Positions 23,550 through 53,771 of a stretch of DNA of 64,000 bases are shown here, piece by piece; positions within the stretch are counted from its first letter, which is position 1; each line of letters starts with the position of its first letter. The stretch is from an uncultured delta proteobacterium (GTDB taxonomy: Bacteria; Myxococcota_A; Polyangia; Polyangiales; Polyangiaceae), in assembly GCA_963850305.1 (NCBI GenBank), contig CAWKKR010000004.1, positions 512,001 through 576,000 on the forward strand, in the 5' to 3' direction. The notes beneath the pieces are model-generated. The model made no database searches. It was not told the origin of the DNA and saw only the letters and a program-made list of their open reading frames with translations. The position numbers were made by a program, and so were the translations under genes.

Positions 23550-23565
23550 TGGCATGGGCGTTGCT
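23550..23565 (+). promoter_or_regulatory. sigma54 -24/-12 promoter of ppsA operon
   Basis: TGGCATGGGCGTTGCT (GG-N10-GC). 13 nt separate the -12 C from the ATG. Confidence 0.75.
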
Positions 23566-23577
23566 CTGCGAATTCCT

Positions 23578-25962
23578 ATGAGCGCACAATTCGTAATTCC
23601 GCTGGATCGAGTCGAGCTTTCCGACGTGAGCCGCGTCGGTGGAAAGAACGCCTCGCTCGGGGAGCTGATCCGTCACCTCGGAACGTCCGGAGTGAAGGTC
23701 CCAGGAGGCTTCGCCGTCACGGCCGATGCATTCCGAAAACATCTGGCCGCAAACGATCTCGAATCGCGGATCTATCCGGCTCTCGAGCGGCTGGACGTCC
23801 GGAACGTGGAAGCACTGGAGCGAGAGGCGCTCGGCATTCGCGAGCTGATCCGCGCGGCGCCACTCCCCACGGTCGTGGCCGAAGAGGTTCTCGCTGCATA
23901 TGCCAATCTGTGTGCGGAGTACGGAGTGGCGGAGGCCGACGTGGCCGTGCGATCGAGCGCGACCGCGGAAGACTTGCCCGGGGCGTCTTTTGCGGGCCAA
24001 CAGGAGACGTTTCTCAACGTCCGCGGGGGAGCGCGCCTCCTCGCGCGAGTCCGCGACTGCATGGCGTCGCTCTTCACCGATCGCGCGATCGTCTATCGAG
24101 CCGAGCGCGGCTTCGACCATCGCCAGGTCGCGCTCTCCGTCGGCGTTCAGAAAATGGTCCGCAGCGACGTGGGATCCGCGGGCGTGATCTTCACGCTCGA
24201 CACCGAGTCTGGATTTCGCGACGTCGTCGTCGTCACCGCCGCGTACGGACTCGGGGAGATGGTCGTACAAGGCCGCGTGAACCCCGACGAGTTCTGGGTC
24301 CACAAGCCGACCCTGACGAAAGGGTTTCGGCCGATCCTTCGGCGCGAGCTCGGAGAAAAGGCCATCCGTCTGAAGTACGCCGAAGCGGCCGCTCGCGAGG
24401 TCGTCGAGGAACGAGTTCCCCGGGACGAGCGCCTGCGCTACGCACTCACGGACGACGAGGTGCTCGAGCTCGCACGCGCCGCAATGCGGATCGAGGAACA
24501 CTACAGCGCCGTCGCCGGGCGGCCGATGCCCATGGATATCGAGTGGGCGAAAGACGGCCGCGACGGCGGGCTCTACGTCGTGCAAGCGCGACCCGAGACC
24601 GTTCACTCGAACGGCGGGATTCCCAAGCTCGCTTTCTACCGCCTGCGCGGGAAGAGCGACGTCCTGCTCCGCGGAAAGAGCGTCGGGAGCGGCATCGGCC
24701 GCGGAACGGCGCGGGTCGTCCACTCGCCGACCGAGCTCTCCTCGTTCCAGGAAGGCGAGGTTCTCGTTGCAGCTTCAACCGACCCCGACTGGGAGCCGAT
24801 CCTCCGCCGCGCCTCGGCGGTGGTGACGGACCACGGCGGGCGAACCTGTCACGCGGCCATCGTCTCGCGAGAGCTCGGCATCCCCTGCGTCGTGGGCACG
24901 GGTTCGGCAACGACGACGATTTCGTCCGGAGAGGCGGTCACCGTCTCGTGTGCCGACGGCAGCGAGGGCAGCGTCTACCGCGGGCTCCTCGAATTCGACC
25001 GAACCGAAGTGGACGCGGCGGCGCTTCCTCGGTCGAAGGTGCCGATCATGCTCAATGTCGGCAACCCGGATTCCGCATTCCTGCTGGGCCAGCTCCCGAG
25101 CGCCGGGGTCGGTCTGGCTCGGCTCGAGTTCGTAATTTCCAACTCGATCGGCATTCACCCGATGGCGCTCGTTCATCCGGAGCGTGTCACCGATCGGGTC
25201 GCGCTGGCGGAGATACGCAAGCGCACCGCGGGGTTCTCGAACCCCTCGGACTTCTTCGTCGAACGCCTGGCGTCCGGCATCGCCCGCATCGGTGCGGCGT
25301 TCTATCCACGCCCCGTCATCGTTCGGTTCAGCGATTTCAAGACGAACGAGTACGCATCGCTTCTCGGAGGCGCCACGTTCGAGCCCAGAGAGGACAACCC
25401 GATGATCGGATTTCGCGGCGCCTCGCGGTACTACGACGAGCGCTATCGTGAGGGGTTCGCGCTCGAATGCCGCGCGATCCGGCGGGTTCGTGAGGAGATG
25501 GGCCTGGAGAACGTCGTCGTCATGGTGCCGTTCTGCCGGACCTTGACCGAAGCGCACCGAGTGTTGGCGGAGATGGACGCCAGCGGCCTTCGCCGCGGCG
25601 AGCACGGTCTCGAGGTGTACGTGATGTGCGAGATCCCGAACAACGTCATTCTCGCGAGCGAGTTCGCGGAGCTGTTCGATGGCTTCTCGATCGGCTCGAA
25701 CGATCTCACACAGCTGACACTGGGCGTGGACCGAGACTCGGAACTGCTCTCGCACATCTTCGACGAAGCCGATCCCGGCGTGAAGCGGTCGATCCAGAGC
25801 GTCATTTCTTCGGCGCACGCCAAGGGACGCAAGGTCGGCTTGTGCGGACAAGCGCCCAGCGATCGCCCCGAGTTCGCCGTGTTCCTGGCGGCGTGTGGCA
25901 TCGACTCGATCTCCGTCACCGCCGACGCGCTCCCAGCCATCAAAGAGATCCTCAAGGTGTGA
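23578..25962 (+). CDS. ppsA: Phosphoenolpyruvate synthase (pyruvate, water dikinase)
   Basis: VGGKNASLGE, AVRSSATAEDLP.ASFAGQQET, GGRTCHAAIVSRE (phospho-His), GVGLARLEF and FSIGSNDLTQ motifs. Confidence 0.96.
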   Translation: MSAQFVIPLDRVELSDVSRVGGKNASLGELIRHLGTSGVKVPGGFAVTADAFRKHLAANDLESRIYPALERLDVRNVEALEREALGIRELIRAAPLPTVVAEEVLAAYANLCAEYGVAEADVAVRSSATAEDLPGASFAGQQETFLNVRGGARLLARVRDCMASLFTDRAIVYRAERGFDHRQVALSVGVQKMVRSDVGSAGVIFTLDTESGFRDVVVVTAAYGLGEMVVQGRVNPDEFWVHKPTLTKGFRPILRRELGEKAIRLKYAEAAAREVVEERVPRDERLRYALTDDEVLELARAAMRIEEHYSAVAGRPMPMDIEWAKDGRDGGLYVVQARPETVHSNGGIPKLAFYRLRGKSDVLLRGKSVGSGIGRGTARVVHSPTELSSFQEGEVLVAASTDPDWEPILRRASAVVTDHGGRTCHAAIVSRELGIPCVVGTGSATTTISSGEAVTVSCADGSEGSVYRGLLEFDRTEVDAAALPRSKVPIMLNVGNPDSAFLLGQLPSAGVGLARLEFVISNSIGIHPMALVHPERVTDRVALAEIRKRTAGFSNPSDFFVERLASGIARIGAAFYPRPVIVRFSDFKTNEYASLLGGATFEPREDNPMIGFRGASRYYDERYREGFALECRAIRRVREEMGLENVVVMVPFCRTLTEAHRVLAEMDASGLRRGEHGLEVYVMCEIPNNVILASEFAELFDGFSIGSNDLTQLTLGVDRDSELLSHIFDEADPGVKRSIQSVISSAHAKGRKVGLCGQAPSDRPEFAVFLAACGIDSISVTADALPAIKEILKV

Positions 25963-28724
25963 TGGGAACGCAGAAGGACCCGGAAGCGGCGATCGCCGCC
26001 GAACTGTCCGCCTACGGCGAGGAAGTCATCCTGAAGGACGGTGGCTCCATCCGTCTTCGCGCCGTCGGGGCGCCTGACCGGCAGCGCGTGCGTGCGTTCT
26101 TCGACCGCCTCAGCCCGAGGTCGTCTCGCTATCGCTTCTTCGGAGCGGTGTCGTCTCTTCCGTCAGCGGAGGTGTCCAGGATCGCGGGGCTCGACCCCGG
26201 TCGGACGGTGGCGCTCGCAGCCATCGACGACAGCCACGGCGACGAGGACATCGTTGGCATCGCCGAATTCGCGACGCGTCCTCGTGTCGACGGCTCCCCG
26301 GCGGCGTCGCAGGACCCACATCGAGCCGAATTCGCGGTCGCAGTCGCCGACGACCATCAGGACCGCGGCATCGGAACGCTCCTCCTCGAGCGGACGGCAG
26401 CGGCCGCTCAGAGGTCGGGAATCGACGAGCTCGAGGCCTACGTGCTCGCCGACAATGCCGAGATGCTCGACGTGTTTGCGAAGAGTGGATTTCAAATCCA
26501 GGGGTCGCGGGACCACGAACAATGCAAGGTCGTCTTTCAAACCGCGCAGACCGAGCAATTCGTGGCGGCGAGCCTCGAGCGAGAGCGCCTCGCGGCACGC
26601 GAAAGCGTGCGGGTGTTCTTCGAGCCGAGATCCGTCGCCGTCGTCGGGGTGTCGCGGAAGGAAGGGAGCATCGGCCGCGCCATCGTCGAGAACCTCGTGA
26701 AAGCGGGCTTTCCCGGGCCAATCTACCCCGTGAACTCGAACCTCGGGGAGGTGTCCGGCCTGACTTGCTTTTCGTCACTCCTGGCAGTCGGCAAGCCCAT
26801 CGACCTCGTCGTGATTGCCGTTCCGGCAGCGCAGGTCGAATCCGTGGTCGCCGACTGCGCCCACGTTCACGCGAGAGGCGTGGTCGTCGTGTCCTCGGGA
26901 TTCGGCGAGATGTCTCCGGAAGGCAAGGCCCGAGAGATACGGCTCAGGCACCAGGTGCGAAACGCAGGGATGCGCCTGGTTGGCCCGAATTGCATGGGCG
27001 TCCTCAACGCGGCCGACGACATCCGCCTCAACGCGACGTTCGCACCCGTGTGGCCCCCCTCCGGTAACGTGTCGATGCTCTCCCAGAGCGGCGCGCTCGG
27101 CATCGCGATGCTCGACTACGCGAGACAGTTGAACATCGGCCTCGCTGGATTCGTCTCGGTCGGGAACAAGGCGGACGTCTCGGTCAACGACCTGCTTTCA
27201 TATTGGGCGGACGATCCGAAAACGCGGGTCATCGTTCTCTATCTCGAGAGCTTCGGGAACACGCACAAGTTCGTGCGCCTTGCCCCGGAAGTTGCACGGA
27301 AGAAGCCGATCGTCGCGGTGAAATCCGGTCGCTCGGCGGCGGGGACCAGGGCAGCGAGCAGCCATTCGGCGGCACTTGCCAGCCTGGACGTCGGCATCGA
27401 CGCGCTGTTCGCGCAGGCGGGCGTCATTCGTACGAACACACTCGAGGAGCTCTTCGACGTGGTCGCGCTGCTGTCGACGCAACCTTCTCCGAAGGGGCCG
27501 CGCGTGGGGGTCGTCACGAACGCCGGCGGTCCGGGCATTTTGCTGGCTGATGCTTGCGAGGCCCACGGACTGGCCCTTCCGTCGCTGTCTCCGTCGACGC
27601 TCGAGGCGCTTCGACGGATTCTGCCGCCACAAGCCGGCCTCTCGAATCCCATCGACATGATCGCGTCGGCGAGCCCGGACCAGTTCGAGCAAGCCATTGC
27701 ACTCGTGGGGAATGACCCGCTCGTGGACTCCGTCGTCACCATCTATATTCCGCCCCTGGTCACCAAACCCGAGGAGGTGGCGAGAGGCATCGCGCGCGGT
27801 GCCGCTGCCATTCCGAAGGACAAACCGATCGTCACGGTGTTCATGTCTTCGAAGGGCGCGCCGCCCGTGCTGGCGGAGGGCGCACGCGGCAAGATCCCCT
27901 CGTTCGCCTTTCCCGAGAACGCGGCGCTGGCGCTCTCCGCTGCCCTCGGTCATTCGCGTTTCCAGCAGCGCCCCCGGGGCAATCTCGTCTCCATTCCGCG
28001 CGAGAACGAGCGACGCATTCGTCGACTCGTCGACGACGCCTTGCGCGCCTCGGGCGGGGCTAGCGTTTGGCTCTCGACGCAGGACCTCACGGCCCTCCTC
28101 GACCTCGCCGGGATCCCGTTTGCTCCGAGCAAGATGACCTTGCCAGACCCCGACGCCGCTGGCGCCGCCGGCGACGCCCTCGGGTATCCGGTCGTCTTGA
28201 AGGCTGTCGCCAAGACCCTCATTCACAAGAGCGACGTCGGAGGCGTGTCGCTCGGACTGGGCTCGCGAGAGGCCCTTCGAGACGCTGCCGCAGAGATGAA
28301 GACCCGCATGCAAGGTGGCGACCACACCCTCGAAGGCTTCCTGATTCAACGCCAGATCGACGGCGGAATCGAAGCACTGGTCGGCGTCACGCGAGATCGC
28401 GCACTCGGACCGGTCATCGTGGCTGGCCTCGGAGGCGTTCAGGTCGAATTGCTCGGAGACGTGGCGTTCAGGCTGCCTCCGATCTCCGACCTCGACGCAC
28501 GAGAGATGCTGGATCACCTGAAGGCGAAACGTCTCTTCGACGGCTTTCGAGGCGCCCCCCCTGCCGATCGGGCGGCACTGGTCGACGTGATCTGCAAGGT
28601 GTCCGCCCTCGTCGACATCGTGCCGGAAATTGCGGAGATCGATCTGAACCCCATCAAGGTGCTGATGCCCGAAAGGGGTGTCGTCGTCGTCGACGCGCGG
28701 ATCCGGATCGGGATCGAGAGCTGA
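25962..28724 (+). CDS. GNAT acetyltransferase fused to ADP-forming acyl-CoA synthetase (CoA-binding, ligase, ATP-grasp); Pat/Acd-like
   Basis: N-terminal GNAT (AEFAVAVADDHQDRGIGT), then GPNCMG, SQSGA, GNKAD, AASSHSAALA, TNAGG.G, HKSDVGGV and DLNP. TGATG overlap with ppsA. Confidence 0.9.
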   Translation: MGTQKDPEAAIAAELSAYGEEVILKDGGSIRLRAVGAPDRQRVRAFFDRLSPRSSRYRFFGAVSSLPSAEVSRIAGLDPGRTVALAAIDDSHGDEDIVGIAEFATRPRVDGSPAASQDPHRAEFAVAVADDHQDRGIGTLLLERTAAAAQRSGIDELEAYVLADNAEMLDVFAKSGFQIQGSRDHEQCKVVFQTAQTEQFVAASLERERLAARESVRVFFEPRSVAVVGVSRKEGSIGRAIVENLVKAGFPGPIYPVNSNLGEVSGLTCFSSLLAVGKPIDLVVIAVPAAQVESVVADCAHVHARGVVVVSSGFGEMSPEGKAREIRLRHQVRNAGMRLVGPNCMGVLNAADDIRLNATFAPVWPPSGNVSMLSQSGALGIAMLDYARQLNIGLAGFVSVGNKADVSVNDLLSYWADDPKTRVIVLYLESFGNTHKFVRLAPEVARKKPIVAVKSGRSAAGTRAASSHSAALASLDVGIDALFAQAGVIRTNTLEELFDVVALLSTQPSPKGPRVGVVTNAGGPGILLADACEAHGLALPSLSPSTLEALRRILPPQAGLSNPIDMIASASPDQFEQAIALVGNDPLVDSVVTIYIPPLVTKPEEVARGIARGAAAIPKDKPIVTVFMSSKGAPPVLAEGARGKIPSFAFPENAALALSAALGHSRFQQRPRGNLVSIPRENERRIRRLVDDALRASGGASVWLSTQDLTALLDLAGIPFAPSKMTLPDPDAAGAAGDALGYPVVLKAVAKTLIHKSDVGGVSLGLGSREALRDAAAEMKTRMQGGDHTLEGFLIQRQIDGGIEALVGVTRDRALGPVIVAGLGGVQVELLGDVAFRLPPISDLDAREMLDHLKAKRLFDGFRGAPPADRAALVDVICKVSALVDIVPEIAEIDLNPIKVLMPERGVVVVDARIRIGIES

Positions 28725-28787: not shown

Positions 28788-29216
28788 TCACGCCGCGGGG
28801 GCGCTGGCATCCGCGCGCTGCTTCGAAAAGCTGAGCTCGACCTCGGGTGAGCGGAGCAACGTGCCGAAGGCTGGACAGGCCCGCACCGACCGCTCGATTG
28901 CCGGCAGATAGTCATCGGGCACTCCCGCAGGAAGGGCGACGTGCACGGTCACTTTGTCGAGACGCGGCGTCGGGTCGCGCGCCTTGCGAGCTTCGACCTC
29001 CACGCGGAGTCCCTCCGGCGAGAGCTTCCGTCCGAGCAAGAAGGCGGCGGCGAAGTAGTGCGCGCAAGCCCCGGCCGCCGCTACCATCACGTCGAGCGGG
29101 GACGGCCCACGATCCTCGCCGCCCGGGACGGCGCTCGGTTGGTCGAATAGCAGCTCATGGCTTCCGAGATGGACAGAGCTCGCGACCCCACCCGCTGATT
29201 CGATGATGGCTTTCAT
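28788..29216 (-). CDS. OsmC-family protein
   Basis: DQP..VPGGEDRGPSP......A.GAC followed by a CP...TL motif. Confidence 0.85.
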   Translation of the reverse strand: MKAIIESAGGVASSVHLGSHELLFDQPSAVPGGEDRGPSPLDVMVAAAGACAHYFAAAFLLGRKLSPEGLRVEVEARKARDPTPRLDKVTVHVALPAGVPDDYLPAIERSVRACPAFGTLLRSPEVELSFSKQRADASAPAA

Positions 29217-29231
29217 TGGGTTCTCCTGTTG

Positions 29232-29945
29232 CTACGAGGGACCGTCGCCGAGGACGTACCCGTGACTGCGCGCTAGCCAGGCGAGGACGTCGATGGTCGA
29301 GACGATGCCGACGACGCGGCCAGCCGCGGAAACGACCGGCAGGCGGTGCACGTGTTCGCACGCCATCAGTGCCGCGGCTTTTGCGATCGTCTCGTTGACG
29401 GGAAGACAGAAGGCGATCGGCATCATGATGTCACCGACGGTTGGTGTCGAGGGAGCCGCGAGGTCGCCGTACGACAACCTAATCAGGTTCGTCTTGGAGA
29501 CGACACCGAGGGGACGCCCCTCGTCGTCGACGACCGGTGCGCCGCTGATCCCCCTTTCGAGAAACAGGGCCCCCAGAGCCTCAGCGCCGAGGTCCGCCGT
29601 GACGCAGATCACGTGCCTGGTCATGATCTCCGAAACGAGAGCAAAGTCAGCGCTCCCTGCTTTCGTGGGCGCACGGGAAACGTTGCCGGATCGACTGGAA
29701 ACGGCCTCTTCGTCGGAAAGGCGACACGAGATGAGCACCCCCCGTGCGTCGGGACTCGTGCGGAGCCCGCCATGACGGGAGCAGTCGAAGCAAGCATCCA
29801 GGGCGGTATGCGATCCGCTCAACGGGCATGGCGCGACGAACTCAATCCGTAGGCTGTCCTTTCCCAAGGTCTGCCGCGAATGAAGCGAGGAACTGACGAG
29901 CCTGTAGCCCGCATTTTCCAGTCTGTCCTGTCCATGATCGTTCAT
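29232..29945 (-). CDS. CBS-domain protein with Cys-containing N-terminal extension
   Basis: CBS pair (VSEIMTRHV..., ISGAPVVD..G.PLGVVS, VHRLPVV...G.VVGIVS). AAGGAAG RBS before the ATG at 29945. Confidence 0.8.
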   Translation of the reverse strand: MNDHGQDRLENAGYRLVSSSLHSRQTLGKDSLRIEFVAPCPLSGSHTALDACFDCSRHGGLRTSPDARGVLISCRLSDEEAVSSRSGNVSRAPTKAGSADFALVSEIMTRHVICVTADLGAEALGALFLERGISGAPVVDDEGRPLGVVSKTNLIRLSYGDLAAPSTPTVGDIMMPIAFCLPVNETIAKAAALMACEHVHRLPVVSAAGRVVGIVSTIDVLAWLARSHGYVLGDGPS

Positions 29946-29992: not shown

Positions 29993-30008
29993 TGCAACGA
30001 ATCGGCCA
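29993..30008 (-). promoter_or_regulatory. sigma54 -24/-12 promoter of CBS-osmC unit
   Basis: Minus strand TGGCCGATTCGTTGCA (GG-N10-GC). Confidence 0.7.
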
Positions 30009-30052: not shown

Positions 30053-30067
30053 CTGCACTTCGTGCAC
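30053..30067. promoter_or_regulatory. Candidate enhancer (UAS) palindrome
   Basis: CTGCACTTCGTGCAC (reverse complement GTGCACGAAGTGCAG), upstream of the CBS sigma54 motif. Confidence 0.4.
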
Positions 30068-30123
30068 CGCTCCGCGGGTTCTGCGTGTGCCGATGCCTGG
30101 TTGGCTTCCCAAGGAGGGGCGAG

Positions 30124-30152
30124 TTGACCAGGCGCCCGCACGTACGCAGATT
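30124..30152 (+). promoter_or_regulatory. Possible sigma70-type promoter of trxC
   Basis: TTGACC-N17-CAGATT, ending 6 nt before the GTG start. Confidence 0.3.
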
Positions 30153-30158
30153 TGCGGC

Positions 30159-30593
30159 GTGCTGACATTCCGATGCGAGTCCTGCGGCGGGTTGAATCGT
30201 GTTCCCGCGGCCAAGCTGGCGCAAAAGCCCGTGTGCGGCCGCTGCAAGCAGCGACTGGACGTGTCGGGCGCTCCGCAAGCCGTGAACGAAGGAGAGCTCT
30301 CGGGCGCCATCGCGGGGTCGCCGATCCCGGTGCTCGTCGACTTCTGGGCGCCGTGGTGTGGCCCGTGTCGAATGGCCGCACCCATCCTCGAGCGGATTGC
30401 GCGCGCGCGTGCTGGTCGGTTGCTCGTGCTCAAAATCAACGGCGACGAAAATCCGTCCGTGTCTGCGCGGCACCGGGTCCAGGGGATCCCCGCGTTCATC
30501 GCGTTCCGGGACGGTGTCGAGGCCGCCAGGCAGGTTGGCCTCCTGCCGGAACCGGCGTTTGCCCGCTGGGTGGATGGTTTCGTAGCGGCGTGA
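30159..30593 (+). CDS. trxC: Thioredoxin 2 (Zn-finger thioredoxin)
   Basis: N-terminal CESC...NR...CGRC zinc motif and VDFWAPWCGPC active site. Confidence 0.92.
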   Translation: MLTFRCESCGGLNRVPAAKLAQKPVCGRCKQRLDVSGAPQAVNEGELSGAIAGSPIPVLVDFWAPWCGPCRMAAPILERIARARAGRLLVLKINGDENPSVSARHRVQGIPAFIAFRDGVEAARQVGLLPEPAFARWVDGFVAA

Positions 30594-30714: not shown

Positions 30715-31155
30715 CTACTTCGCCCCGCGGACCGTCAGGACCGGAACGGGCGACGTTCGTACGATCTTCTCTGCAACGCTTCCGAGAAGGGCGCGCTCGA
30801 AGCCTCGCCGCCCATGCGTCCCCATGACGATGAGGTCGGCACGCACCTCCCTCGCGCAGTCGAGCGTTTCGCTCCAGGGTACGCCGATGCGGAGAACGGC
30901 CTGTACCGAAGGCAACCGCTTCCGAAGGGCGGCCAGCGTCGCATCGAGCTGTCGTTGCGCGGCCTCTTGAACGGGCGTCAAGACGTCGATGGGGCCCACG
31001 GTCATGCCGGGGTATCCGTAAAGGGGCAGCTCGACGGCGTGAAACAACGTCAACGACGCTTGGTATCGCGTGGCAAGGTCGATGGCGACCTCGAGTGCTT
31101 GCTCGGACGAGTCGGAGAAATCCGTCGGAACCAGGATGCGCTTGATATCGACCAT
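30715..31155 (-). CDS. Universal stress protein (UspA family)
   Basis: ILVPTDFS...; DLIVMGTHGRRG....LLGSVAEKIVR.SPVPVLTV. Confidence 0.93.
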   Translation of the reverse strand: MVDIKRILVPTDFSDSSEQALEVAIDLATRYQASLTLFHAVELPLYGYPGMTVGPIDVLTPVQEAAQRQLDATLAALRKRLPSVQAVLRIGVPWSETLDCAREVRADLIVMGTHGRRGFERALLGSVAEKIVRTSPVPVLTVRGAK

Positions 31156-31186
31156 CAGGGTTGTCCTCGCTGTCGTCGTGGACAGT

Positions 31187-31672
31187 TCATTTGTGGACCG
31201 CGGACTGCGACTCGTGGTGGGTTCTCGGCAGTCGCGCCGTGATTGCGCCGAAGAGCGAGTCGATGAGTGATGCACGTTCGGACTCCGGCACGTGTTCGTC
31301 GGCCCACGCGTAAAGCATCTGGTCCTCGCGGTGCGCGTGCGCTCTGAGTTCGTCGATGAAGGCGCGCGCCGTCTCTGCTCTGACCGCGTGCAGATCCACG
31401 CACGTCCCGAGCTCGAGCAAGCGCTTGCGAATGAGCTCGTGCTCTTTGAGCATGGCGCGGGCCTCGACTTCGTTCGTTCGAAGGAGTGCGGGAATCAGGT
31501 ACCGCTCTTCGACGTCGATGTGGGCGAGCAACTCGGAGTCGAACTTGGTCCAGGTAGCACACACGCCTTCGCGGTCGTCCGCCTCGAACGCCGCGATCAG
31601 ACTGTCGAAAAGACGCTCCAACCGTTTGTGGTCGGAGAGCAGCTGTTCGCGAATCTTGGTCGAGTCGGACAT
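31187..31672 (-). CDS. Hemerythrin/HHE cation-binding domain protein
   Basis: DH..LE..F, HI.VEE..L.P, EH..I and HA.RED..LY are di-iron-type motifs. Confidence 0.82.
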   Translation of the reverse strand: MSDSTKIREQLLSDHKRLERLFDSLIAAFEADDREGVCATWTKFDSELLAHIDVEERYLIPALLRTNEVEARAMLKEHELIRKRLLELGTCVDLHAVRAETARAFIDELRAHAHREDQMLYAWADEHVPESERASLIDSLFGAITARLPRTHHESQSAVHK

Positions 31673-31684: not shown

Positions 31685-31700
31685 AGCAAGGCGCGTGCCG
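31685..31700 (-). promoter_or_regulatory. sigma54 -24/-12 promoter of hemerythrin-usp unit
   Basis: Minus strand CGGCACGCGCCTTGCT, 13 nt to the ATG. Confidence 0.75.
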
Positions 31701-31834
31701 CGGCTACCGAGCGAATTCTCAGGGGACCAGCGTGACGACCGACCCGTGAGCGACGGGAGCTTCGATGAAGCGCCGAGGTCCGCTGGCAAACCCCCGGGGC
31801 TCGCGGTGAATCCGAATGCCCGTTCTGCGCCGGG

Positions 31835-31849
31835 GCGCAATCCGTGCGC
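31835..31849. promoter_or_regulatory. Candidate enhancer (UAS) palindrome between divergent sigma54 promoters
   Basis: GCGCAATCCGTGCGC, ~135 and ~100 bp from the two promoters. Its reverse complement is 14/15 identical to 52149-52163. Confidence 0.5.
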
Positions 31850-31947: not shown

Positions 31948-31963
31948 TGGCCGTTAAATTGCT
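31948..31963 (+). promoter_or_regulatory. sigma54 -24/-12 promoter of CBS-pfk unit
   Basis: TGGCCGTTAAATTGCT, 13 nt to the ATG. Confidence 0.72.
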
Positions 31964-41410: not shown

Positions 41411-41426
41411 GGGCACGCGGATTGCT
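41411..41426 (+). promoter_or_regulatory. sigma54 -24/-12 promoter of HAD-GH65 unit
   Basis: GGGCACGCGGATTGCT (GG-N10-GC). Confidence 0.72.
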
Positions 41427-44678: not shown

Positions 44679-44694
44679 GGGCACGGTGTTTGCA
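44679..44694 (+). promoter_or_regulatory. sigma54 -24/-12 promoter upstream of SpoIIAA-like gene (possibly reading into methyltransferase-hydrogenase genes)
   Basis: GGGCACGGTGTTTGCA (GG-N10-GC). Confidence 0.72.
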
Positions 44695-45536: not shown

Positions 45537-45677
45537 CGCCGCAGCCGGCTCGGGTTCACCCGCCCGAGACCGCCGCGTCACGCGCCCGATGGCGCGCGTC
45601 GTGATCGGCCGCGCCCTGCAGTTCGAGCCATTGCGTTGCGCCCGCAGGTCAGCGCCGGTACGTATGCGGACCTGCAC

Positions 45678-46298
45678 ATGAACGAGCCCGCTCCGCTCCG
45701 AGGCGCCGAATTCTGGAACCAGCGCTACGGCGGTGAAGACTTTGCTTATGGGCGTGAACCGAACGACTTTCTCCGGGAACAGGCGCATCGCATCCCCGAG
45801 GGGCGCGTCTTGTGTCTCGCAGAGGGCGAGGGGCGAAACTCGGTGTTCCTCGCGGGGCTGGGCCACGGCGTGACGGCCGTCGACTTTTCCGCGGAAGGGC
45901 TGCACAAAGCCGAGCGGCTCGCCCGCGAGCGCAACGTCGCGATCGAGACCGTGCAAGCCGACCTCGCGTCGTACGAGCCCGAGGCCGGGAGCTTCACGGG
46001 CGTGGTCGCGATCTTCGCGCACCTGCCGCCGGGGGTTAGAAAGAAGGTCCACGGCTGGGTGCCCCGCGTCCTTCGCCCCGGCGGCGTCTTCCTGCTGGAG
46101 GCGTACCGGCCCGAGCAGCTGGCGTACGGCACGGGCGGACCCCGCGATCCCGCTCTGCTGATGACCCTCGATGCCCTGAAGACCGAGCTTGCGCCCCTGT
46201 CGTTCGAGATCGGGCGCGAGGTCGATCGGGAGATCGAGGAGGGGTCGTTTCATTCGGGTCGGAGCGCCACCGTGCAGGTGCTCGCGGTCCGCAGCTAG
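45678..46298 (+). CDS. Class I SAM-dependent methyltransferase (TehB-like)
   Basis: FW.QRY....YG.EPNDFL, VLCLAEGEGRN and LRPGG..LLEAY motifs. Confidence 0.88.
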   Translation: MNEPAPLRGAEFWNQRYGGEDFAYGREPNDFLREQAHRIPEGRVLCLAEGEGRNSVFLAGLGHGVTAVDFSAEGLHKAERLARERNVAIETVQADLASYEPEAGSFTGVVAIFAHLPPGVRKKVHGWVPRVLRPGGVFLLEAYRPEQLAYGTGGPRDPALLMTLDALKTELAPLSFEIGREVDREIEEGSFHSGRSATVQVLAVRS

Positions 46299-46363
46299 CT
46301 TGGCCAATCGGTTTCGCCCCCCTCGCTTCTTCGGCGCCCCCCCGCGGCATCGGACGCGTTACG

Positions 46364-47500
46364 ATGGGGCTCGTGGCAGAGGTACTCGACACGAGCGCAC
46401 TGGGCGACTTGCTCGCACTGCTCGTCGACGAGGGCCGTACGCTCATCGGACCCACGGTCCGCGACGGTGCGATCGTGTACGACGAGATCGGAGGGCTCTC
46501 CGAGTTACCCGAGGGGTGGACTGCCTCACAGAGCCCGGGAAGCTACAGGCTGGAGCGACGGAAGGACCGAGCCTTGTTCGGCTTCGCGTCGAGCGGCAGA
46601 TCGTTCAGGCCTTTTTTCCACGTGCCGGTGGAACGACTCGTCACGCTACGGCGCAGTGGCGAAGGGTGGTCGGCCGTCGGGGAACCGACGGTGGGGCGGA
46701 AGCTTGCCCTGATCGGGGCCAGGGCCTGTGATCTCGCGGCCCTAGCGGTGCAAGATCGGGTGTTCGTCGAGGGGGCTTTCCCCGACCCGCGGTACGCCGC
46801 GCGGCGCGCGAATACCTTCGTCATCGCGGTGAACTGCGGCGAAGCCGGTGGGACTTGCTTCTGCACTTCGATGGGAACGGGTCCACGGGCAACCCACGGC
46901 TACGATCTTTCGCTCACCGAGGTCCTCGACGGCGAACACCGCTTCGTCGTCGAGGCGGCCACGGCCGAAGGCGCGCGCTTGCTCGCAGCCGTGCGAAGTC
47001 GCGCTGCGAACGTGGGGGACCTCGCCGCCGCGAACCGGGCCGTGGAGCATGCGCGCGACACCATGGGCCGTTCTCTCGACACCCGCGGCATCCGCGACCT
47101 GTTGTTCGACAACCTGGAGCACCCGCGGTGGGACGACGTCGCCGCGCGCTGCCTCTCGTGCACGAACTGTACGCTCGTCTGCCCGACCTGCTTCTGCGGG
47201 ACGATCGACGAAGTCGCGTCGCTCGAGCCGGACGTCGTGGAGCGCAGGAAACGCTGGGATTCGTGCTTCACGGAGGAGCATTCGTACCTGCATGGCGGCG
47301 CCGCTCGGCCATCGGTGCGGGCGCGCTATCGTCAGTGGCTCACGCACAAGCTCGCCGGATGGATCGACCAATTCGGAAGCTCGGGTTGCGTGGGGTGCGG
47401 TCGCTGCATAACGTGGTGTCCTGCGGGCATCGACATCACCGAAGAGGTGGCCGCGATCCGGGGCAGGCCCGTCCCCACCGCGCGGGAGCAAACACCGTGA
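46364..47500 (+). CDS. Group 3b [NiFe]-hydrogenase beta subunit (4Fe-4S, AsrA-like)
   Basis: [37 protein letters not shown] and [13 protein letters not shown] motifs. Confidence 0.9.
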
Positions 47501-47964
47501 CCTTCGAATCGACCGAGCGCTTGCTCCGCGAGCATTCCTTCACGGAGGGCATGTCGGACGCCCATGTGCGCTTCATGTTCGGGTGCATGAAGAACGTGCG
47601 CTACCGGACCGGCGAGTACCTGTTTCGCGAGGGGGAGGCCGCGGACCAGCTCTTCCTCCTGCGCCAGGGCCGCGTCACTCTGGAGGTACACGCCGCGGGA
47701 AGCGGCGCTACCCAGCTCGAGAGCCTCGGTGAAGGGGACGTGCTCGGGTGGTCGGTGCTCTTCCCTCCACACCGATGGGACACGGACTGCCGCGTCCTCG
47801 AAACGTGCGTCGCCCTCCTGTTCGACGGGAGCTGCCTGCGGCAAAAGGTCGAGCAAGATCTGCCGTTCGCTTATGCCCTCACGCGGCGCTTGCTCTACGT
47901 CGTGCACCGACGTCTCGAGCGCGCCCGTCTCCACGAAGCGGATGTGTACGGGGCGCGCGCTTGA
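47497..47964 (+). CDS. Stand-alone cyclic nucleotide-binding domain protein
   Basis: [18 protein letters not shown]...GEGDVLGWS with no HTH. GTGA overlap with the beta subunit. Confidence 0.85.
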
Positions 47965-48791
47965 CGTTCGGGTCCCCACACGACCCGATGGTCCCAGCAT
48001 TTCTGCGCGTCTTGCGCGTTCGTCGCGAGACCGAAGACGTGCGCACGGTCGAGATCGACACTTCGGAATCCGGCTTCTCCTTCCTGCCGGGGCAATTCAA
48101 CATGCTGTACGCGCCGGGCCTCGGAGAGAGCGCGATCTCCGTGAGCGGCGATCCCTCGAAGCCCGCTCGCCTCGTGCACACCATCCGTGCGGTCGGCACT
48201 GCCACGCGCGGGCTCACCGCCCTCCGCCGCGGAGACCAGGTCGGAGTGCGCGGTCCCTTCGGCCATGGATGGCCGCTCGAAGCGGCGGTCGGGGGTGATG
48301 TGGTCATCGTCGCTGGCGGGCTTGGGCTCGCGCCGCTCCGGTCCGCGATCTACGAACTTTGCCGGCGCCGCCCCGAGTTCGGGCACGTCGCCGTGGCGTG
48401 CGGTGCTCGGTCTCCCGACCAGGTGTTGTTCCAGACCGAGCTCGCCCGGTTCGGCGAGAAGCTCGATGTGTCGGTGACGGTCGATAGCGCCGACGAAGGC
48501 TGGACGGGGGCCACGGGGGTCGTGACCGGCCTGCTTCCGCGGGCCGTGCGCGATCCGCCGCGAACCACGGCGTTCGTCTGCGGCCCCGAGGTGATGATGC
48601 GCTTCGCGGCGCGGGAGCTTTCGCGGCTCGGTGTCGCCGAGACGCGGATCTTCGTTTCCCTCGAGCGCAACATGAAGTGCGGGCTCGGACACTGTGGCCA
48701 CTGCCAGCTCGGACCGACCCTCATCTGCCGCGACGGACCGGTCTACGGGTACGATCGCGTGAACCGGTATCTTCACGTGCGGGAGCTCTAG
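47961..48791 (+). CDS. Group 3b hydrogenase gamma subunit (FAD/NAD(P)-binding, 2Fe-2S)
   Basis: [31 protein letters not shown] and ERNMKCG.G.CGHCQ....IC.DGPV motifs. Confidence 0.9.
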
Positions 48792-49586
48792 GTGAGCCCG
48801 CGCCGTCCGAAGCTCGCCGTCTGGAAGTTCGCCTCCTGCGATGGGTGCCAGCTGTCGCTGCTCGACTGCGAGGACGAGCTGCTCACGGTGGCCGAGCACG
48901 TGACGATCGCGCATTTCCTGGAAGCATCGAGCGCCACCGTGAGGGGCCCGTACGACGTTTCTCTCGTCGAGGGATCGGTGACGACGGCGCACGACGCGGA
49001 ACGCATCCAGGCGATCCGGCGCGCATCGAAGAAGCTCGTCACGATCGGCGCTTGCGCCACTGCCGGCGGGGTTCAGGCACTGCGGAACTTCCGGGACGAA
49101 AAGGAGTTCCTCTCCGTCGTCTACGCGCACCCGGAATACATCGACTCGCTCTCGACCTCCACGCCGATCGCGGCACACGTGCCGGTCGATTTCGAGCTCC
49201 ACGGCTGTCCCATCGACAAGCGGCAGCTCCTCGAGGCGCTCGCCGCGCTCGTGAACGGCCGCATTCCGTCCGTTCCATCGACTCCCGTGTGCGTCGAATG
49301 CAAGAGCCGCGGCACCTCGTGCGTCGTTGTCGCGCGCGGCACTCCGTGCCTCGGTCCAGTCACTCAGTCGGGCTGTGGCGCGCTCTGCCCGAGCTTCGAC
49401 CGCGGCTGCTACGGCTGCTTCGGACCCGTCCGCGGCGCGCAGACGGCTTCTCTCGAACCCTTGCTCTTGCGGCTGGGGACGTCGCCGCGTCAGATCGAGC
49501 GCCTTTACTCGACCTTCAACGTCGCCGCCCCCGCGTTCGAGGCGGCGGCCGGGAGCGCGCGGGAAAAGGAGCCTCGAGGTGGCTAG
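48792..49586 (+). CDS. Group 3b hydrogenase small (delta) subunit
   Basis: ASCDGCQ, VEGS, GACA..GG, GCP, CLGPVT..GCGA.CP and GCYGCFGP motifs. No Tat signal. Confidence 0.9.
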
Positions 49587-50865
49587 GACCATTCGCATCG
49601 ACCAGCTCGCTCGCGTCGAAGGCGAGGGATCGCTGACGATCCGCTTTTCGGGCAATCGACCGAAAGACGTGGAGCTCAGGATCTTCGAGCCGCCCCGCTT
49701 CTTCGAAGCGTTCCTCCGGGGCCGTTCGTGTCTCGAGGCCCCCGACCTCACCGCACGCATCTGCGGTATCTGTCCGGTCGCGTACCAGATGAGTGCTTGC
49801 GCGGCGATCGAGGACGCTCTGGGCGTAGACGTGGGCGCCGACATCCGGGCGCTCCGCCGCTTGCTGTACGCGGGTGAATGGATCGAGAGCCACTGCCTGC
49901 ACGTGTTCATGCTGCACGCGCCGGATTTTCTCGGGTACCCGAGCGGCGTGGCGATGGCGAAGGATCACCCCGAACCGGTACGAGCAGGACTCCGCATCAA
50001 GAAGGCGGGGAACGCCATCGTGCGCGCGCTGGGAGGCCGCGAGATCCACCCCATCAACGTGCGAGTCGGCGGATTCTATAGAGTGCCGTCGCGAAGCGAG
50101 CTCGAGGCACTCGTGCCGGAGCTCGAGTGCGCCCGCAAGCAGGCGCGCGAGAGCCTCGAGTGGATGGCAAGGTTCGACTTCCCGGACTTCGAGCGGGACT
50201 ACGAGCTCGTCGCGCTGCGAAGTGGTGACGACTACCCGACGTGCGGCGGACGACTCGCGTCGAACAAGGGTCTCGACGTCGCGGTGACCGACTACGATGA
50301 GTGGTTCACGGAGGAACAGGTGGAGTATTCCACGGCGCTCCACTCGACCCTGCGTGGGCGTGACGCCTACCTGTGCGGCCCGCTCTCACGGATCAATCTG
50401 GCGTTCGAGCGTCTCTCGCCTGCGGCACGGGAAGCCGCCGGGGCCGTCGGATTCTCGGTGCCGTGCATGAATCCGTTCAAGAGCCTGCTCGCCCGCTTGC
50501 TGGAGATCATTCACGCTCTCGACGAATCCCTTCGGTTCGTTGCTTCGTATACGGTGCCCGCGGTGCCGAGTGTTGATGTCCGGATGCACGAAGGGATCGG
50601 TCGGGGTGCCACGGAGGCGCCGCGCGGCCTTCTCTATCACCGCTACCAGCTCCGCGACGATGGCACGATCGAGAACGCGAAGATCGTCCCCCCGACGTCG
50701 CAGAACCAGAAATCCATCGAGCGCGACCTCTTCGAGATCGCACCTCGGCTCGCCGCGATGCCGCATCCGGCCGCCTGCACGCTGGCCGAGCAGACCGTCC
50801 GAAACCACGACCCTTGCATTTCTTGCTCCACGCACTTCCTGAAGCTCGACATCGTGCACGAGTGA
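49579..50865 (+). CDS. Group 3b [NiFe]-hydrogenase large (alpha) subunit
   Basis: RVEGEG, EPPRFFE, L1 RICGICP, EAPRG and L2 DPCISCSTH followed by a cleavable tail FLKLDIVHE. Confidence 0.94.
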
Positions 50866-50872
50866 CCTCCGC

Positions 50873-51361
50873 ATGCGAGGGCGCGTCATCGGGATCGGTC
50901 AGCAATCGGCGGGGGACGACGGGGCGGGGCTCGCCGTCATCGAGGCTCTGCGGCAGTATCCGGAAGCGCGCGACCTCGATCTGGTCGTCACGGACGACGC
51001 GAGTGACCTCATCGTGTTGCTCGAGTGTCCGGCTCCCGTGATCGTCGTGGACGCGGTCGTTGGAGCGGGGCCTCCGGGGCAGATCCTCGTCGTCACACCC
51101 GCATCGCTCGCGAACGCGCCCCCGTCGAGACTCTCGACGCATGGGCTCGGCGTCCGTCAAGCGATCGAGCTGTCGGCCATCCTGTCGCCGAACCTGGTCG
51201 CCAGGGAGATCCACATCGTTGCGCTCTGCATCGCCGAACCCGAGCGCGCGGTCATCGGGCTCTCGCCGCCGGTACGAGACGCGGCGGAGCGCGCCGCTCG
51301 CCTCGTCCTGGATATCGTCGACCGTCGCCGGCAGTCGAGTCGAGCGAGCTTCGAGCGGTGA
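50873..51361 (+). CDS. Hydrogenase maturation endopeptidase
   Basis: IGIG....GDDG.G, VVDA and STH motifs. Directly after the large subunit. Confidence 0.88.
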   Translation: MRGRVIGIGQQSAGDDGAGLAVIEALRQYPEARDLDLVVTDDASDLIVLLECPAPVIVVDAVVGAGPPGQILVVTPASLANAPPSRLSTHGLGVRQAIELSAILSPNLVAREIHIVALCIAEPERAVIGLSPPVRDAAERAARLVLDIVDRRRQSSRASFER

Positions 51362-51367: not shown

Positions 51368-52027
51368 TCACTTGAACGGGATCAGAAACCCGGACTGATG
51401 ACCCGATCGTTGAGGGTTGAAATGGTACGTGTGTGGCCGCTGATGATGTTCCGCGTGTTGTTCACACCAGAACTCCTTGCCGTTGGTCACTCGACGCGTT
51501 TCGAGGCAACGCGGGCAGGGTGGTTCGATCTTGGGGGTTTTGATCCCGGCAACCGATCCGGCGGGACGGAACACGAGGACGGGGCAAGGAGCCAGCCTGA
51601 TCGTCGCCTCCGCGACCGAACCGAGGAAGAAATGCCCCGCGCCCCGGCGACCATGGGTTCCCACGATCACGAGGTCGGCTTCGACATCGGCGGCGAGCTG
51701 GGAGATCACCTCTGCGGGGTGGTAAAGGCCGATGTGGGTCATCAATCGGTCGAACGGGGCGCCGCTGCTGAAGCGGTCCGCATGCCGGGCCAGCAGTTCC
51801 TCCACATGGGCTTGCAAGCGCAGGGATTCCTCGGACAGGTCGGGCGCCGTCACCGCGCCCACCGGGAGCACCGTGACCCTTCCGATGACGTGAACGACGT
51901 GAATCTGGGTCGGCTGGTGCCTTCCTGCGATGTCGATGGCGTAATCGAGAGCTCCACTGCCGAGATCGGAGTAGTCGATCCCGACGACGATCGTGAAAGG
52001 CTTCGTTTCTCGGCTGGCTTGGGTCAT
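51368..52027 (-). CDS. Universal stress protein with C-terminal Cys/His extension
   Basis: IVVGIDYS and DLVIVGTHGRRG...FFLGSVAE...R.APCPV; tail CPRC...WCEQH..HH...H. GGAGG RBS. Confidence 0.88.
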   Translation of the reverse strand: MTQASRETKPFTIVVGIDYSDLGSGALDYAIDIAGRHQPTQIHVVHVIGRVTVLPVGAVTAPDLSEESLRLQAHVEELLARHADRFSSGAPFDRLMTHIGLYHPAEVISQLAADVEADLVIVGTHGRRGAGHFFLGSVAEATIRLAPCPVLVFRPAGSVAGIKTPKIEPPCPRCLETRRVTNGKEFWCEQHAEHHQRPHTYHFNPQRSGHQSGFLIPFK

Positions 52028-52048: not shown

Positions 52049-52064
52049 TGCATGCAATGGGCCA
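52049..52064 (-). promoter_or_regulatory. sigma54 -24/-12 promoter of second usp
   Basis: Minus strand TGGCCCATTGCATGCA (GG-N10-GC). Confidence 0.62.
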
Positions 52065-52148
52065 ATCGGGCGGCCGCGGTTCCCGGTGAAGAGGGACGCC
52101 CCGGAAGTGATTCTTTCGGTCCGATGACGGTGCAATTCCGTCGCTCCC

Positions 52149-52163
52149 GCGCACGGAGTGCGC
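52149..52163. promoter_or_regulatory. Candidate enhancer (UAS) palindrome
   Basis: GCGCACGGAGTGCGC, ~85 bp upstream of the usp promoter. A partial copy, GTGCAATTCCGTCGC, lies at 52130-52144. Confidence 0.5.
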
Positions 52164-52225
52164 CCCGTTAGTTCAGCATCGACGCCTAAGCAATTCCCTC
52201 CCCCTGCTTGACGCCAGGGTTCGGT

Positions 52226-52999
52226 TCAATGGGAGTCGATCCCCGCCCTCTTCGCGAGCGCTCGATCGATGAGCTCGTGGAGGGCTCCTTCCACCTCGTG
52301 CCGAAGCCGCTCGGCCACCTCCGGGTCTTCGGCCTGATCCGGACGGGCCTGCGGCATGATCGGGTCACCCACCAGGTAGCGCAAGCGAACGAGATGGGGG
52401 ATCGGAAGAATTCGCGAAGGCAACGGGATTGGAAAGTCGTTCCGATGCAGCCATCGCCGGCCGCGTGTGTAGGCGTCGCCCACGAAGTCGAAAGCATCGT
52501 CGGCGCCGATGGCCGCGAGCGGCACGAGGGGAGCCTGATTGCGGATTGCCGCCCGCACGAAGCCGTAGCGATTCCCCCAGAGCAAGCGATAACGGAGCTC
52601 CCGCGGTTTGACGGCTTCGCGAAGCCCGCCGGGCAAGACGAGTACGAGCTCATCACGGCTGAGTAGCCGATCGACATTCTCCGGAGTGCCGTCGACCGTG
52701 CCGGTCGCCGCGGCAATCCGTCTCAGAAAGGGCACGCGCCACCACGCGTGCTCGCCGAGCGCCCAGACCGTTCGGTGGAGCTCCTCGCCGATGGCCGCCA
52801 TTGGAAAGAGCACGTCCCAGCCGAACGCATGATTCGCGACGAGAAGCGCCCGGCCGCGGGGGACCTTCTCGAGTCCTTCGATCTCCACCTTCAGCCGCCG
52901 CGAAACCCACGTGACAGCTGCATACAAGCGTCGCGCGGAATCCGGCGAGAAGGCGACGAAGGCGTCCCGGTATTCGGGACGAAAGCGATCGATAGTCAT
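52226..52999 (-). CDS. Lysophospholipid/acylglycerol acyltransferase (PlsC/DGAT2-like)
   Basis: NHAFGWD (HX4D), PGG.REA and GFVR.A....AP.VP motifs. Confidence 0.85.
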   Translation of the reverse strand: MTIDRFRPEYRDAFVAFSPDSARRLYAAVTWVSRRLKVEIEGLEKVPRGRALLVANHAFGWDVLFPMAAIGEELHRTVWALGEHAWWRVPFLRRIAAATGTVDGTPENVDRLLSRDELVLVLPGGLREAVKPRELRYRLLWGNRYGFVRAAIRNQAPLVPLAAIGADDAFDFVGDAYTRGRRWLHRNDFPIPLPSRILPIPHLVRLRYLVGDPIMPQARPDQAEDPEVAERLRHEVEGALHELIDRALAKRAGIDSH

Positions 53000-53080
53000 G
53001 GTTCGTTACCCGCGGAGCTCGTGGCCCGGGGATCCGCGTCTACGCGCTTTGCCGCCCGCGCAAAGTTAATTTCGGGTCGC

Positions 53081-53115
53081 CGGTGCATGCGCGGAGCGAA
53101 GCGCCGCATGCACCG
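53081..53115 (-). terminator. Stem-loop downstream of hsp20 (possible terminator/stabiliser)
   Basis: 11-bp perfect inverted repeat CGGTGCATGCG...CGCATGCACCG. No clear U-tract. Confidence 0.45.
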
Positions 53116-53132
53116 CGCGATCCGATGGGAAA

Positions 53133-53603
53133 TCACGCTGTCCGGACCTTCACCTCGCGCGGTTTGGATTCCGGTTTCTTCGCCAGAACCAGCTTGAGGA
53201 CGCCGTCCTTGAGATCGGCTCGGACCGAATCCGCGTCGACGCCTTCGGGGAGCGCGAACGATCGGGTGAACGAGCCATAAGAGCGCTCGTACGAATAGTA
53301 CGTGTCGCTCTTGTCGGTCTTTTCCGCCTCGCGCTTGCCGCTCACGGTCAGACGGTTGTCGTTCATGTGGACTTCGAGATCCTTCGCATCGACACCCGGC
53401 ACATCGGCCTTGAATTCGAACGCGTCCTTCGTTTCCTTGATCTCGAACGCGGGCGCGAACGAGGCGACGCCTTCGAGCGACGCGCCCTGCCGGAAGGGAT
53501 CCCACTGCAAGAGCTCGCGGAAAGCCGTGAAAGGATCCCACGTCGCTCGCGCGGCGAGCTTCCGGTTGTCATTGGTGTGCTTGTCGACTGTGATATTTGC
53601 CAT
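53133..53603 (-). CDS. Hsp20/alpha-crystallin small heat-shock protein
   Basis: E.KD.F...ADVPG, L.VSGKR and ERSYGSF.RSF.LP..VD...A...DGVL motifs. Confidence 0.94.
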   Translation of the reverse strand: MANITVDKHTNDNRKLAARATWDPFTAFRELLQWDPFRQGASLEGVASFAPAFEIKETKDAFEFKADVPGVDAKDLEVHMNDNRLTVSGKREAEKTDKSDTYYSYERSYGSFTRSFALPEGVDADSVRADLKDGVLKLVLAKKPESKPREVKVRTA

Positions 53604-53688: not shown

Positions 53689-53704
53689 AGCAACCCGCAT
53701 GCCA
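53689..53704 (-). promoter_or_regulatory. sigma54 -24/-12 promoter of hsp20
   Basis: Minus strand TGGCATGCGGGTTGCT. Confidence 0.78.
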
Positions 53705-53755
53705 ACGCGCGCGGGTCGGCGACGCTGCCGTGCGCGCGCCGCCGCACGTATTCGG

Positions 53756-53771
53756 TGGCACGCCTGTTGCT
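53756..53771 (+). promoter_or_regulatory. sigma54 -24/-12 promoter of pcm fusion
   Basis: TGGCACGCCTGTTGCT is near-perfect consensus; 14 nt to the ATG. Confidence 0.82.

Follow-up and report, generated by a model that had tools for sequence, protein, structure and literature searches.

Gene content of the island

The stretch analysed here (the window; 64,000 nucleotides) corresponds to positions 512001-576000 of contig C4 in genome G000, a myxobacterial assembly of 6.26 Mb in 11 contigs that has 66% GC and is 94.8% complete. Between positions 23550 and 55845 it carries an island of genes with ten sigma54 promoter motifs, six of which are accompanied by paired palindromes of the NmpR type. It is probable, from the sequence evidence set out below, that this island is one cluster of a genome-wide low-oxygen regulon of NmpR type. 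In the following, C1, C4, C5, C7 and C8 denote contigs of G000, G001 and G004 are congeners, and numbers with L refer to fetched loci. Genes were called with a custom hexamer model (5286 genes), so that starts and counts are approximate.

The island opens on the forward strand with a phosphoenolpyruvate (PEP) synthase gene (ppsA) and a GNAT/acetate-CoA ligase-like fusion (23578-28724). On the reverse strand follow a CBS-pair protein with a Cys-rich N-terminus and an OsmC-like protein (28788-29945). The additional N-terminal region of this CBS-pair protein (29232-29945, reverse strand) contains several Cys and His residues and has no Pfam match. A Zn-ribbon thioredoxin of TrxC type (30093-30593, forward) is followed by a hemerythrin-domain protein and a universal stress protein (Usp; 30715-31672, reverse), and by a second CBS-pair protein with phosphofructokinase (PFK; 31976-33556, forward). 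The long reverse-strand unit at 33620-41059 encodes CrtI-like and FAD oxidoreductases, pyruvate:ferredoxin oxidoreductase (PFOR) and a DHOD-like protein. Two forward units encode a HAD hydrolase of the beta-phosphoglucomutase family with a GH65 glycoside phosphorylase (41444-44604), and a SpoIIAA-like protein, a methyltransferase, a four-subunit sulfhydrogenase-like (group 3b-type) NiFe hydrogenase, a cNMP-binding protein and a maturation protease (44766-51361). Both Cys motifs of the hydrogenase large subunit are intact. Another Usp (51368-52027, reverse), a DAGAT-like acyltransferase with Hsp20 (52226-53603, reverse) and a fusion of protein-L-isoaspartate methyltransferase (pcm) with an erythromycin esterase (53785-55845, forward) complete the island. 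At the right border, a tRNA-Arg(CCG) gene (55782-55856, reverse) overlaps the end of the pcm fusion. Rfam and ARAGORN searches over the window detected nothing besides this tRNA.

Several reading frames are broken, namely PFK (one frameshift near 33115), PFOR (three between 34750 and 36390), rpoN (L001) and copies of a sensor kinase including the one at C8:909997. These are likely assembly indels. Pseudogenisation of the cluster is disfavoured, because rpoN and several kinase copies are frameshifted as well and not just PFK and PFOR. An integrated element ending at the tRNA-Arg was also considered, and a recent mobile island was rejected: the left border holds no duplicate of the 3' end of the tRNA (att duplication), no integrase was found among the 52 window ORFs scanned, the GC content of the island (64-68%) resembles that of the genome, and the same island genes are clustered in congeners, but in other orders.

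The gene content, with PilZ proteins, DUF4215 repeats and Ser/Thr kinases, a single rpoN locus and about 33 loci for sigma54 activators (enhancer-binding proteins, EBPs), also suggests a myxobacterium. Among the EBPs are some with the GAFTGA motif.

Sigma54 promoters

A first-pass annotation of the window had listed ten GG-N10-GC motifs, and all ten are present at the places given, each oriented towards a downstream gene. Its minus-strand coordinates are the low ends of the 16-mers, and we name these sites by their high ends. All sites were scored with a position weight matrix (PWM) trained on 146 sites, all outside the window, and 11 bits or more was regarded as strong. Seven of the ten score 11.2-18.4 bits: 23550 (23550-23565, forward, 17.6 bits), 31700 (31685-31700, reverse, 17.9 bits), 41411 (41411-41426, forward, 16.4 bits), 44679 ahead of the hydrogenase unit (44679-44694, forward, 14.1 bits), 52064 (52049-52064, reverse, 11.2 bits), 53704 ahead of hsp20 (53689-53704, reverse, 17.5 bits) and 53756 (53756-53771, forward), which reaches 18.4 bits with a perfect consensus. 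Three sites are weak, namely 30008 (29993-30008, reverse, 7.1 bits), 41104 (41089-41104, reverse, 6.4 bits, with an alternative site of 10.2 bits at 41201) and 31948 (31948-31963, forward, 3.7 bits). The three divergent pairs are confirmed (31700/31948, 41104/41411 and 53704/53756). The near-perfect promoters of the last pair stand back to back at a distance of 52 bp, which leaves no room for an upstream enhancer.

Strong sites are clearly enriched in the island. They precede 7 of its 14 transcription-unit (TU) heads, compared with 148/3631 heads elsewhere in the genome (Fisher P=5.9e-7) and 1/17 flanking heads in the window (P=0.008). A plain consensus with at most one mismatch gives a similar picture (6/14 versus 40/3631), and a reverse-strand control yielded 29 matches at 12 bits or more among the 3631 heads. 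The flanks had been described as free of such motifs, which is wrong, since a strong site at 10947 (15.3 bits) precedes the flanking gene at 10975 with the ATG 13 nt after the GC. They show the genome background of about 4-6%. The open reading frame behind this site (10947-11898, forward, outside the island) is lipoprotein-like and has no Pfam or NCBIfam hit. That nearly every unit is wired in this way holds for 10 of 14 heads under our own TU rule. No site of convincing quality was seen at the thioredoxin, methyltransferase, hydrogenase beta and acyltransferase heads, all of which except thioredoxin may be co-transcribed. Outside the island, just two 30-kb bins contain six or more such promoters, C8:870k with eight and C5:30k with six, and their gene content is similar.

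Further evidence comes from the distance to the start codon. Of the 421 sites of at least 12 bits in the genome, 41 are followed, 13-15 nt beyond the GC, by an ATG that opens a called gene, while low-scoring controls predict about 2.6. Four of the ten island sites are of this type: 23550, 31700 and 31948, with the ATG 13 nt after the GC, and 53756 with 14 nt. In the case of 31948 the spacing accompanies a poor PWM score. Since the PWM does not select for ATG spacing, this peak supports real promoters. It also suggests that in this organism sigma54 promoters commonly give rise to near-leaderless mRNAs. In the passages available from PMC12754779, leaderless mRNA is mentioned just for a sigmaA-type pexR promoter.

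Paired enhancers of NmpR type

In Myxococcus xanthus, NmpR binds paired GCGCA-N5-TGCGC sites and requires a sigma54 site; under hypoxia it induces CBS, Usp, cbb3 oxidase and hemN/hemerythrin genes and its own operon (PMC11841059). Sites bound there have intact cores, with gaps of 14-15 nt at five of seven promoters and of 5 nt at pilR (PMC11841059). We adopted the CGCA-N5-TGCG motif because of that report and then tested it on relatives. The enhancer matrix was trained on 50 sites taken only from nmp loci of relatives, and pairs scoring at least 14 were accepted.

Five such pairs, all spaced 19 bp from start to start, serve six of the ten island promoters (23550, 30008, 31700, 31948, 41411 and 52064). 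The pair upstream of the ppsA promoter (23405-23438; sites 23405 and 23424) scores 23.3. A pair at 31816-31849 (sites 31816 and 31835, score 22.5) is common to the divergent promoters 31700 and 31948. The remaining pairs are located at 41358-41391 (sites 41358 and 41377, score 21.5), at 52130-52163 (sites 52130 and 52149, score 17.9) and, with a moderate score of 15.3, at 30053-30086 (sites 30053 and 30072). The copies at 31835 and 52149 match the palindrome perfectly and the one at 23405 with one mismatch. In each of the five enhancers, at least one palindrome upstream of the sigma54 site has kept its GCA-N5-TGC core intact. Pairs above the cut-off are found at 6/10 island promoters, at 26/147 other sigma54 promoters and at 60/3209 heads without a sigma54 site. 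Outside the window, 23 promoters of this genome have a strong palindrome; it is accompanied by a weaker second one at a distance of 19 bp in 16 of them and of 20 bp in four.

The arrangement is conserved, as promoter and box are retained in 5/8 ppsA loci of relatives and the hsp20 promoter of G001 carries a box. The spacing differs between groups. With a partner score of at least 5 required, and with kin that are not independent, 29-31 bp is seen in 16/17 pairs from genomes with an A-type activator (see below) and in 10/12 from other members of the activator clade, while 19-20 bp is found in 19/30 pairs from B-type congeners and in 25/30 in this genome. In our literature search, which left out most subscription papers, no report of 19-20 bp instead of 29-30 bp was found. 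A short spacing is not unprecedented, however, because the gap at M. xanthus pilR is 5 nt (PMC11841059).

The putative regulon elsewhere in the genome

At least 32 distinct sets of enhancer plus promoter are present in the genome. Those outside the island precede genes for Dps-like, CBS, Usp, SpoIIAA-like, M50-CBS and baeRF proteins, one of the activators (EBP-A, see below), and, among others, the Usp gene with which a second hydrogenase cluster, containing hyp genes, begins. Including the island, the genome has at least three clusters of this kind. Further clusters of the same putative regulon lie at C5:16115-64404 and C8:865000-890000, and they contain genes for acetate kinase, phosphoketolase, glycogen phosphorylase, the second hydrogenase with hyp, P-type ATPases, an M50-CBS protease and baeRF proteins. 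Upstream of ccoN, a box pair with 19-bp spacing was found (C8:1447700-1447810), and no canonical GG-N10-GC site. The apparent -24 element of ccoN is one base off GG, which may be a variant promoter or a sequence error.

Two candidate activators

That no EBP is encoded in the window was confirmed by the scan of its 52 ORFs. This supports an activator encoded in trans, as the first-pass annotation had assumed, but a single EBP is not what the genome offers. It contains two paralogues of the NmpR clade among its EBP loci, and an NmpR-type box is lacking at three strong promoters (44679, 53704 and 53756). Upstream of EBP-A (C7:1008348-1009889) there are a perfect box and a promoter of 15.6 bits, its own box pair being spaced 31 bp, and the gene is preceded by one for a Rec-PAS-HisKA-HATPase kinase. 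Downstream of EBP-A (C7:1006224-1008300) lie a Usp and an Hsp20-like ORF that the gene caller missed, then alanine dehydrogenase and another Usp. EBP-B (C8:1451130-1452503) is 57% identical to EBP-A and adjoins a cbb3 oxidase cluster, CBS and Usp genes. Both proteins have the GAFTGA motif and a receiver (Rec) domain.

In a quick tree of 47 full-length Rec-type EBPs (30 from relatives and 17 from this genome), EBP-A and EBP-B join a clade of 32 rows (SH-aLRT 100) with a common recognition helix. The loci around the relatives' clade members encode a protoglobin domain in 21 of 29 cases, and one of the protoglobin kinases matches the globin structure of AfGcHK (PDB 5OHE, E=1e-39), which is an NmpU homologue (PMC6211767). 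A box upstream of a sigma54 site was found at 21/29 of these loci (23/31 with the two of this genome) compared with 1-4/31 in five Markov controls, the pattern for this comparison having been widened after the island sites were seen. The published M. xanthus nmp primer gave ten matches, in unrelated genomes, and another primer none in 48 genomes. From synteny and motif we infer that this clade is that of NmpR; together with clade membership, they make EBP-A and EBP-B putative NmpR orthologues. A kinase of NmpS type (N-terminal receiver plus kinase) stands beside EBP-A (C7:1010094-1011503) and a second of Rec-HisKA type is encoded at C8:885714. The double-receiver protein NmpT was looked for at the C7 locus alone, and none was called there.

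EBP-B is the genus-typical copy. Orthologues with 75-78% identity are present in four of six congeners, which together with G000 give seven related, non-independent genomes of the genus. In G001 and G004 the orthologue (76-78% identical) is located amid homologues of island genes. These homologues are ppsA, crtI, the FAD oxidoreductase, PFOR, hemerythrin, OsmC, the acyltransferase, CBS and Usp. In G004 it stands between the FAD oxidoreductase and ppsA. The EBP-B cluster of G001 comprises OsmC, hemerythrin, CBS, acyltransferase, the GNAT ligase, ppsA, Usp, Hsp20, PFK and PFOR, most of them with sigma54 sites and boxes. On these grounds EBP-B, perhaps helped by EBP-A, is most likely the activator of the island.

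A candidate oxygen sensor

In M. xanthus the pathway includes a globin kinase, NmpU. No protoglobin was found in G000 (94.8% complete) with Pfam PF11563, a custom HMM or tblastn, and the only globins of the six congeners are globin-STAS proteins. The globin kinase is therefore found in 0/7 genomes of the genus. At five loci of relatives (L077, L078, L079, L080 and L088) a fused globin-PAS-kinase adjoins the activator and forms a shortened relay.

A candidate for the missing sensor is encoded at C8:883351-885312. This kinase has the architecture PAS-PAS-HisKA-HATPase-Rec, and the genome contains five related copies, most of them broken in the assembly. Its N-terminal PAS domain aligns to FixL and DosP (PDB 1Y28, 1DP6 and 9BGV; E 1e-15 to 4e-11), and the conserved His, which we take to be the haem ligand, is kept. 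The haem-PAS kinase, EBP-B and ppsA occur in the same four of six congeners and were not found in the other two. In G001, G004, G007 and G008 no more than about 7 kb separate the kinase gene from an NmpR-clade activator, and in most cases a Rec-HisKA-HATPase partner accompanies it. From these associations, the haem-PAS kinase with a receiver-kinase partner would replace the globin sensor NmpU. The same literature search brought up no publication that describes an NmpR system fed by a haem-PAS kinase, nor one that deals with this regulon in organisms other than M. xanthus. The genome encodes another FixL-like PAS kinase (C1:708844-710636), which is followed by what by eye is likely a LuxR/NarL-type regulator. 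A CBS gene with a box is located about 3 kb away, and this kinase could belong to a parallel oxygen system.

Weighing of the explanations

Chance matches in GC-rich DNA can practically be dismissed as the origin of the motifs. Three of the ten sites score below 11 bits and reverse-strand controls yield some matches, but the enrichment (P=6e-7), the fixed distance to the ATG and the conservation upstream of orthologues largely refute such an origin for the seven strong sites. More serious, although still improbable, is a mixture of real promoters that answer to several EBPs and, besides oxygen, to heat or general stress, with clustering by gene shuffling instead of one regulon. The genome has about 33 EBP loci, a box is lacking at three of the strongest promoters, and the island hydrogenase has no match in any of the six congeners at E<=1e-80. 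However, one paired motif that is rare elsewhere is common to six promoters, a box is present at the hsp20 promoter of G001, and the gene content is coherent with low-oxygen regulons. Because of its absence from the congeners (it occurs in 3/40 relatives), the hydrogenase is, judged by its distribution, a lineage-specific and later addition. It is also doubtful that the main activator is EBP-A, acting with the NmpS-like Rec-PAS-kinase encoded next to it, in which case the regulon, lacking an NmpU that holds NmpS off, would be largely constitutive or otherwise tuned. Loss of nmpU turns the M. xanthus pathway on (PMC6211767), EBP-A has the perfect box and strong sigma54 site described above, and 51-55% identity was found between its kinase and the middle one in the relatives' cassettes of globin kinase, hybrid kinase and EBP. 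On the other hand, its own pair with 31 bp resembles those of A-clade genomes (16/17 at 29-31 bp), while 25/30 pairs in the genome have 19-20 bp as in B-type congeners, and the island genes are kept in congeners that have B-type orthologues only.

Several observations weigh against an NmpR-type regulon driven by EBP-B and a haem-PAS sensor. The strict two-site rule (PMC11841059) does not hold, as the second sites in the island have broken GCA-N5-TGC cores with 2-3 mismatches and a 4-nt gap between the sites. Within 260 bp, boxes are missing at 44679, 53704 and 53756, where the best single site scores at most 8.6 and no pair was found, positions downstream and between included. The hydrogenase-bearing unit, which has its sigma54 site, is among these, and promoter 41104 has a box only about 255 bp upstream. 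It is likely that the three box-less promoters answer to another EBP or have undetected sites. In an unbiased palindrome scan of island against other sigma54 promoters, CGCA-N5-TGCG ranked only joint fourth (P=0.005, uncorrected). The promoter of EBP-B itself has no strong box here, and the clade assignment was made with M. xanthus NmpR absent from the comparison. Concerning the sensor, about 570 kb separate the haem-PAS kinase gene and EBP-B here, the kinase is found as well in some genomes in which the globin kinase is retained, and some clade-bearing genomes have neither at the thresholds used. Taken with these points, an NmpR-type regulon most likely governed by EBP-B remains our preferred explanation.

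Comparison with known systems

The closest relative is M. xanthus's NmpRSTU system with the NmpR regulon (PMC6211767; PMC11841059). Common features are sigma54 promoters with paired upstream GCGCA-N5-TGCGC sites, an NtrC-like activator, a hybrid receiver-kinase, a box upstream of an activator gene, and targets including CBS, Usp, hemerythrin and cbb3 oxidase. Here, in contrast, no protoglobin kinase was found, two activator paralogues are present, and the pairs are mostly spaced 19-20 bp from start to start instead of having the gaps of 14-15 nt. The putative regulon, with at least 32 sets of enhancer plus promoter, is also larger than that of M. xanthus with 7 promoters and 23 genes (PMC11841059), and its predicted targets additionally cover fermentation, carbon storage and group 3b-type hydrogenases. 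The cluster is a variant of NmpRSTU and not a plain member, because neither NmpU nor the M. xanthus site spacing was found.

DosS/T-DosR of mycobacteria is a two-component system whose LuxR/NarL-type regulator acts without sigma54. The island, with its sigma54 promoters and NmpR-type enhancers, resembles the DosR regulon in content only: Usps, HspX/Hsp20, PEP synthase, phosphofructokinase, an acyltransferase and a fermentative group 3b hydrogenase (bioRxiv 10.1101/2023.09.11.557286; PMC3721108), the DosR regulon itself including PEPS, PfkB, HspX, TAG synthases and the group 3b hydrogenase (bioRxiv 10.1101/2023.09.11.557286). The lxa locus of Burkholderia cenocepacia is likewise a cluster (about 50 genes, host-like GC) with Usps, Hsp20, PFK, acetate kinase, one motif at many intergenic sites and co-regulated loci elsewhere (PMC3721108). 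Its motif, however, is Anr/Fnr-like (TGA-N6-TCA), and the candidate regulators are of the CRP/FNR family, not sigma54 with an EBP (PMC3721108). The haem-PAS kinase shares a homologous PAS domain and the His with FixL and DosP. It differs from FixL in being a PAS-PAS-HisKA-HATPase-Rec protein that is paired with a Rec-HisKA-HATPase kinase and linked to an NtrC-like activator, not to FixJ.

The first-pass annotation had proposed a hypoxia regulon with DosR-like content and different wiring under a single trans-encoded EBP. Its sigma54 wiring, the activator in trans and the DosR-like low-oxygen content (Usp, CBS, hemerythrin, Hsp20, PEP synthase, PFK and the group 3b-type hydrogenase) stand, but the single EBP does not, and the different wiring is not new: sigma54/NmpR control of Usp, CBS and hemerythrin is known in M. 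xanthus (PMC11841059).

Proposed mechanism

We propose the following sequence of events. Low oxygen would alter the state of the haem-PAS kinase, and the relay would phosphorylate EBP-B. Dimers of EBP-B would then load on the pair of a strong and a weak site, which is located about 35-150 bp upstream of the -24 element, so as to open the sigma54 promoters, with two enhancers serving divergent promoter pairs. Some products would presumably slow the cell (Usp, CBS, Hsp20, pcm) and others would bind oxygen (hemerythrin, cbb3). Storage and fermentative metabolism would be switched on with PEP synthase, PFK, PFOR, acetate-CoA ligase and GH65, fermentation through PFOR, acetate-CoA ligase and hydrogenase maintaining ATP and redox balance. 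The cbb3 oxidase, phosphoketolase/acetate kinase and the second hydrogenase encoded elsewhere would join the programme.

For the genus as a whole, we put forward a more tentative proposal, for which the odds are somewhat short of even. In the NmpR switch, a FixL-type haem-PAS hybrid kinase acting via a receiver-kinase may have taken the place of the globin sensor, and a subclade of activators may read pairs of 19 bp instead of 30 bp. This switch would drive, for the most part from near-leaderless sigma54 transcripts, a dormancy and fermentation programme of DosR size that includes PFOR, phosphoketolase and group 3b hydrogenases evolving H2.

Implications

The core of a sigma54/NmpR low-oxygen regulon was already known (PMC11841059). 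What is added is the name of a regulator family for this promoter cluster, so that the binding protein, a 34-bp element and the signal can now be predicted. If the tentative proposal for the genus is right, the hypoxia toolkit wired by DosR and by Fnr/lxa would have been wired in yet a third way. If the sensor exchange and the spacing rule hold as well, one family of sigma54 activators would have been re-plugged to different oxygen sensors, and paralogues could be kept apart by the spacing of their enhancers. A myxobacterial lineage would then join those aerobes for which fermentation and release of H2 are the likely means of surviving anoxia.

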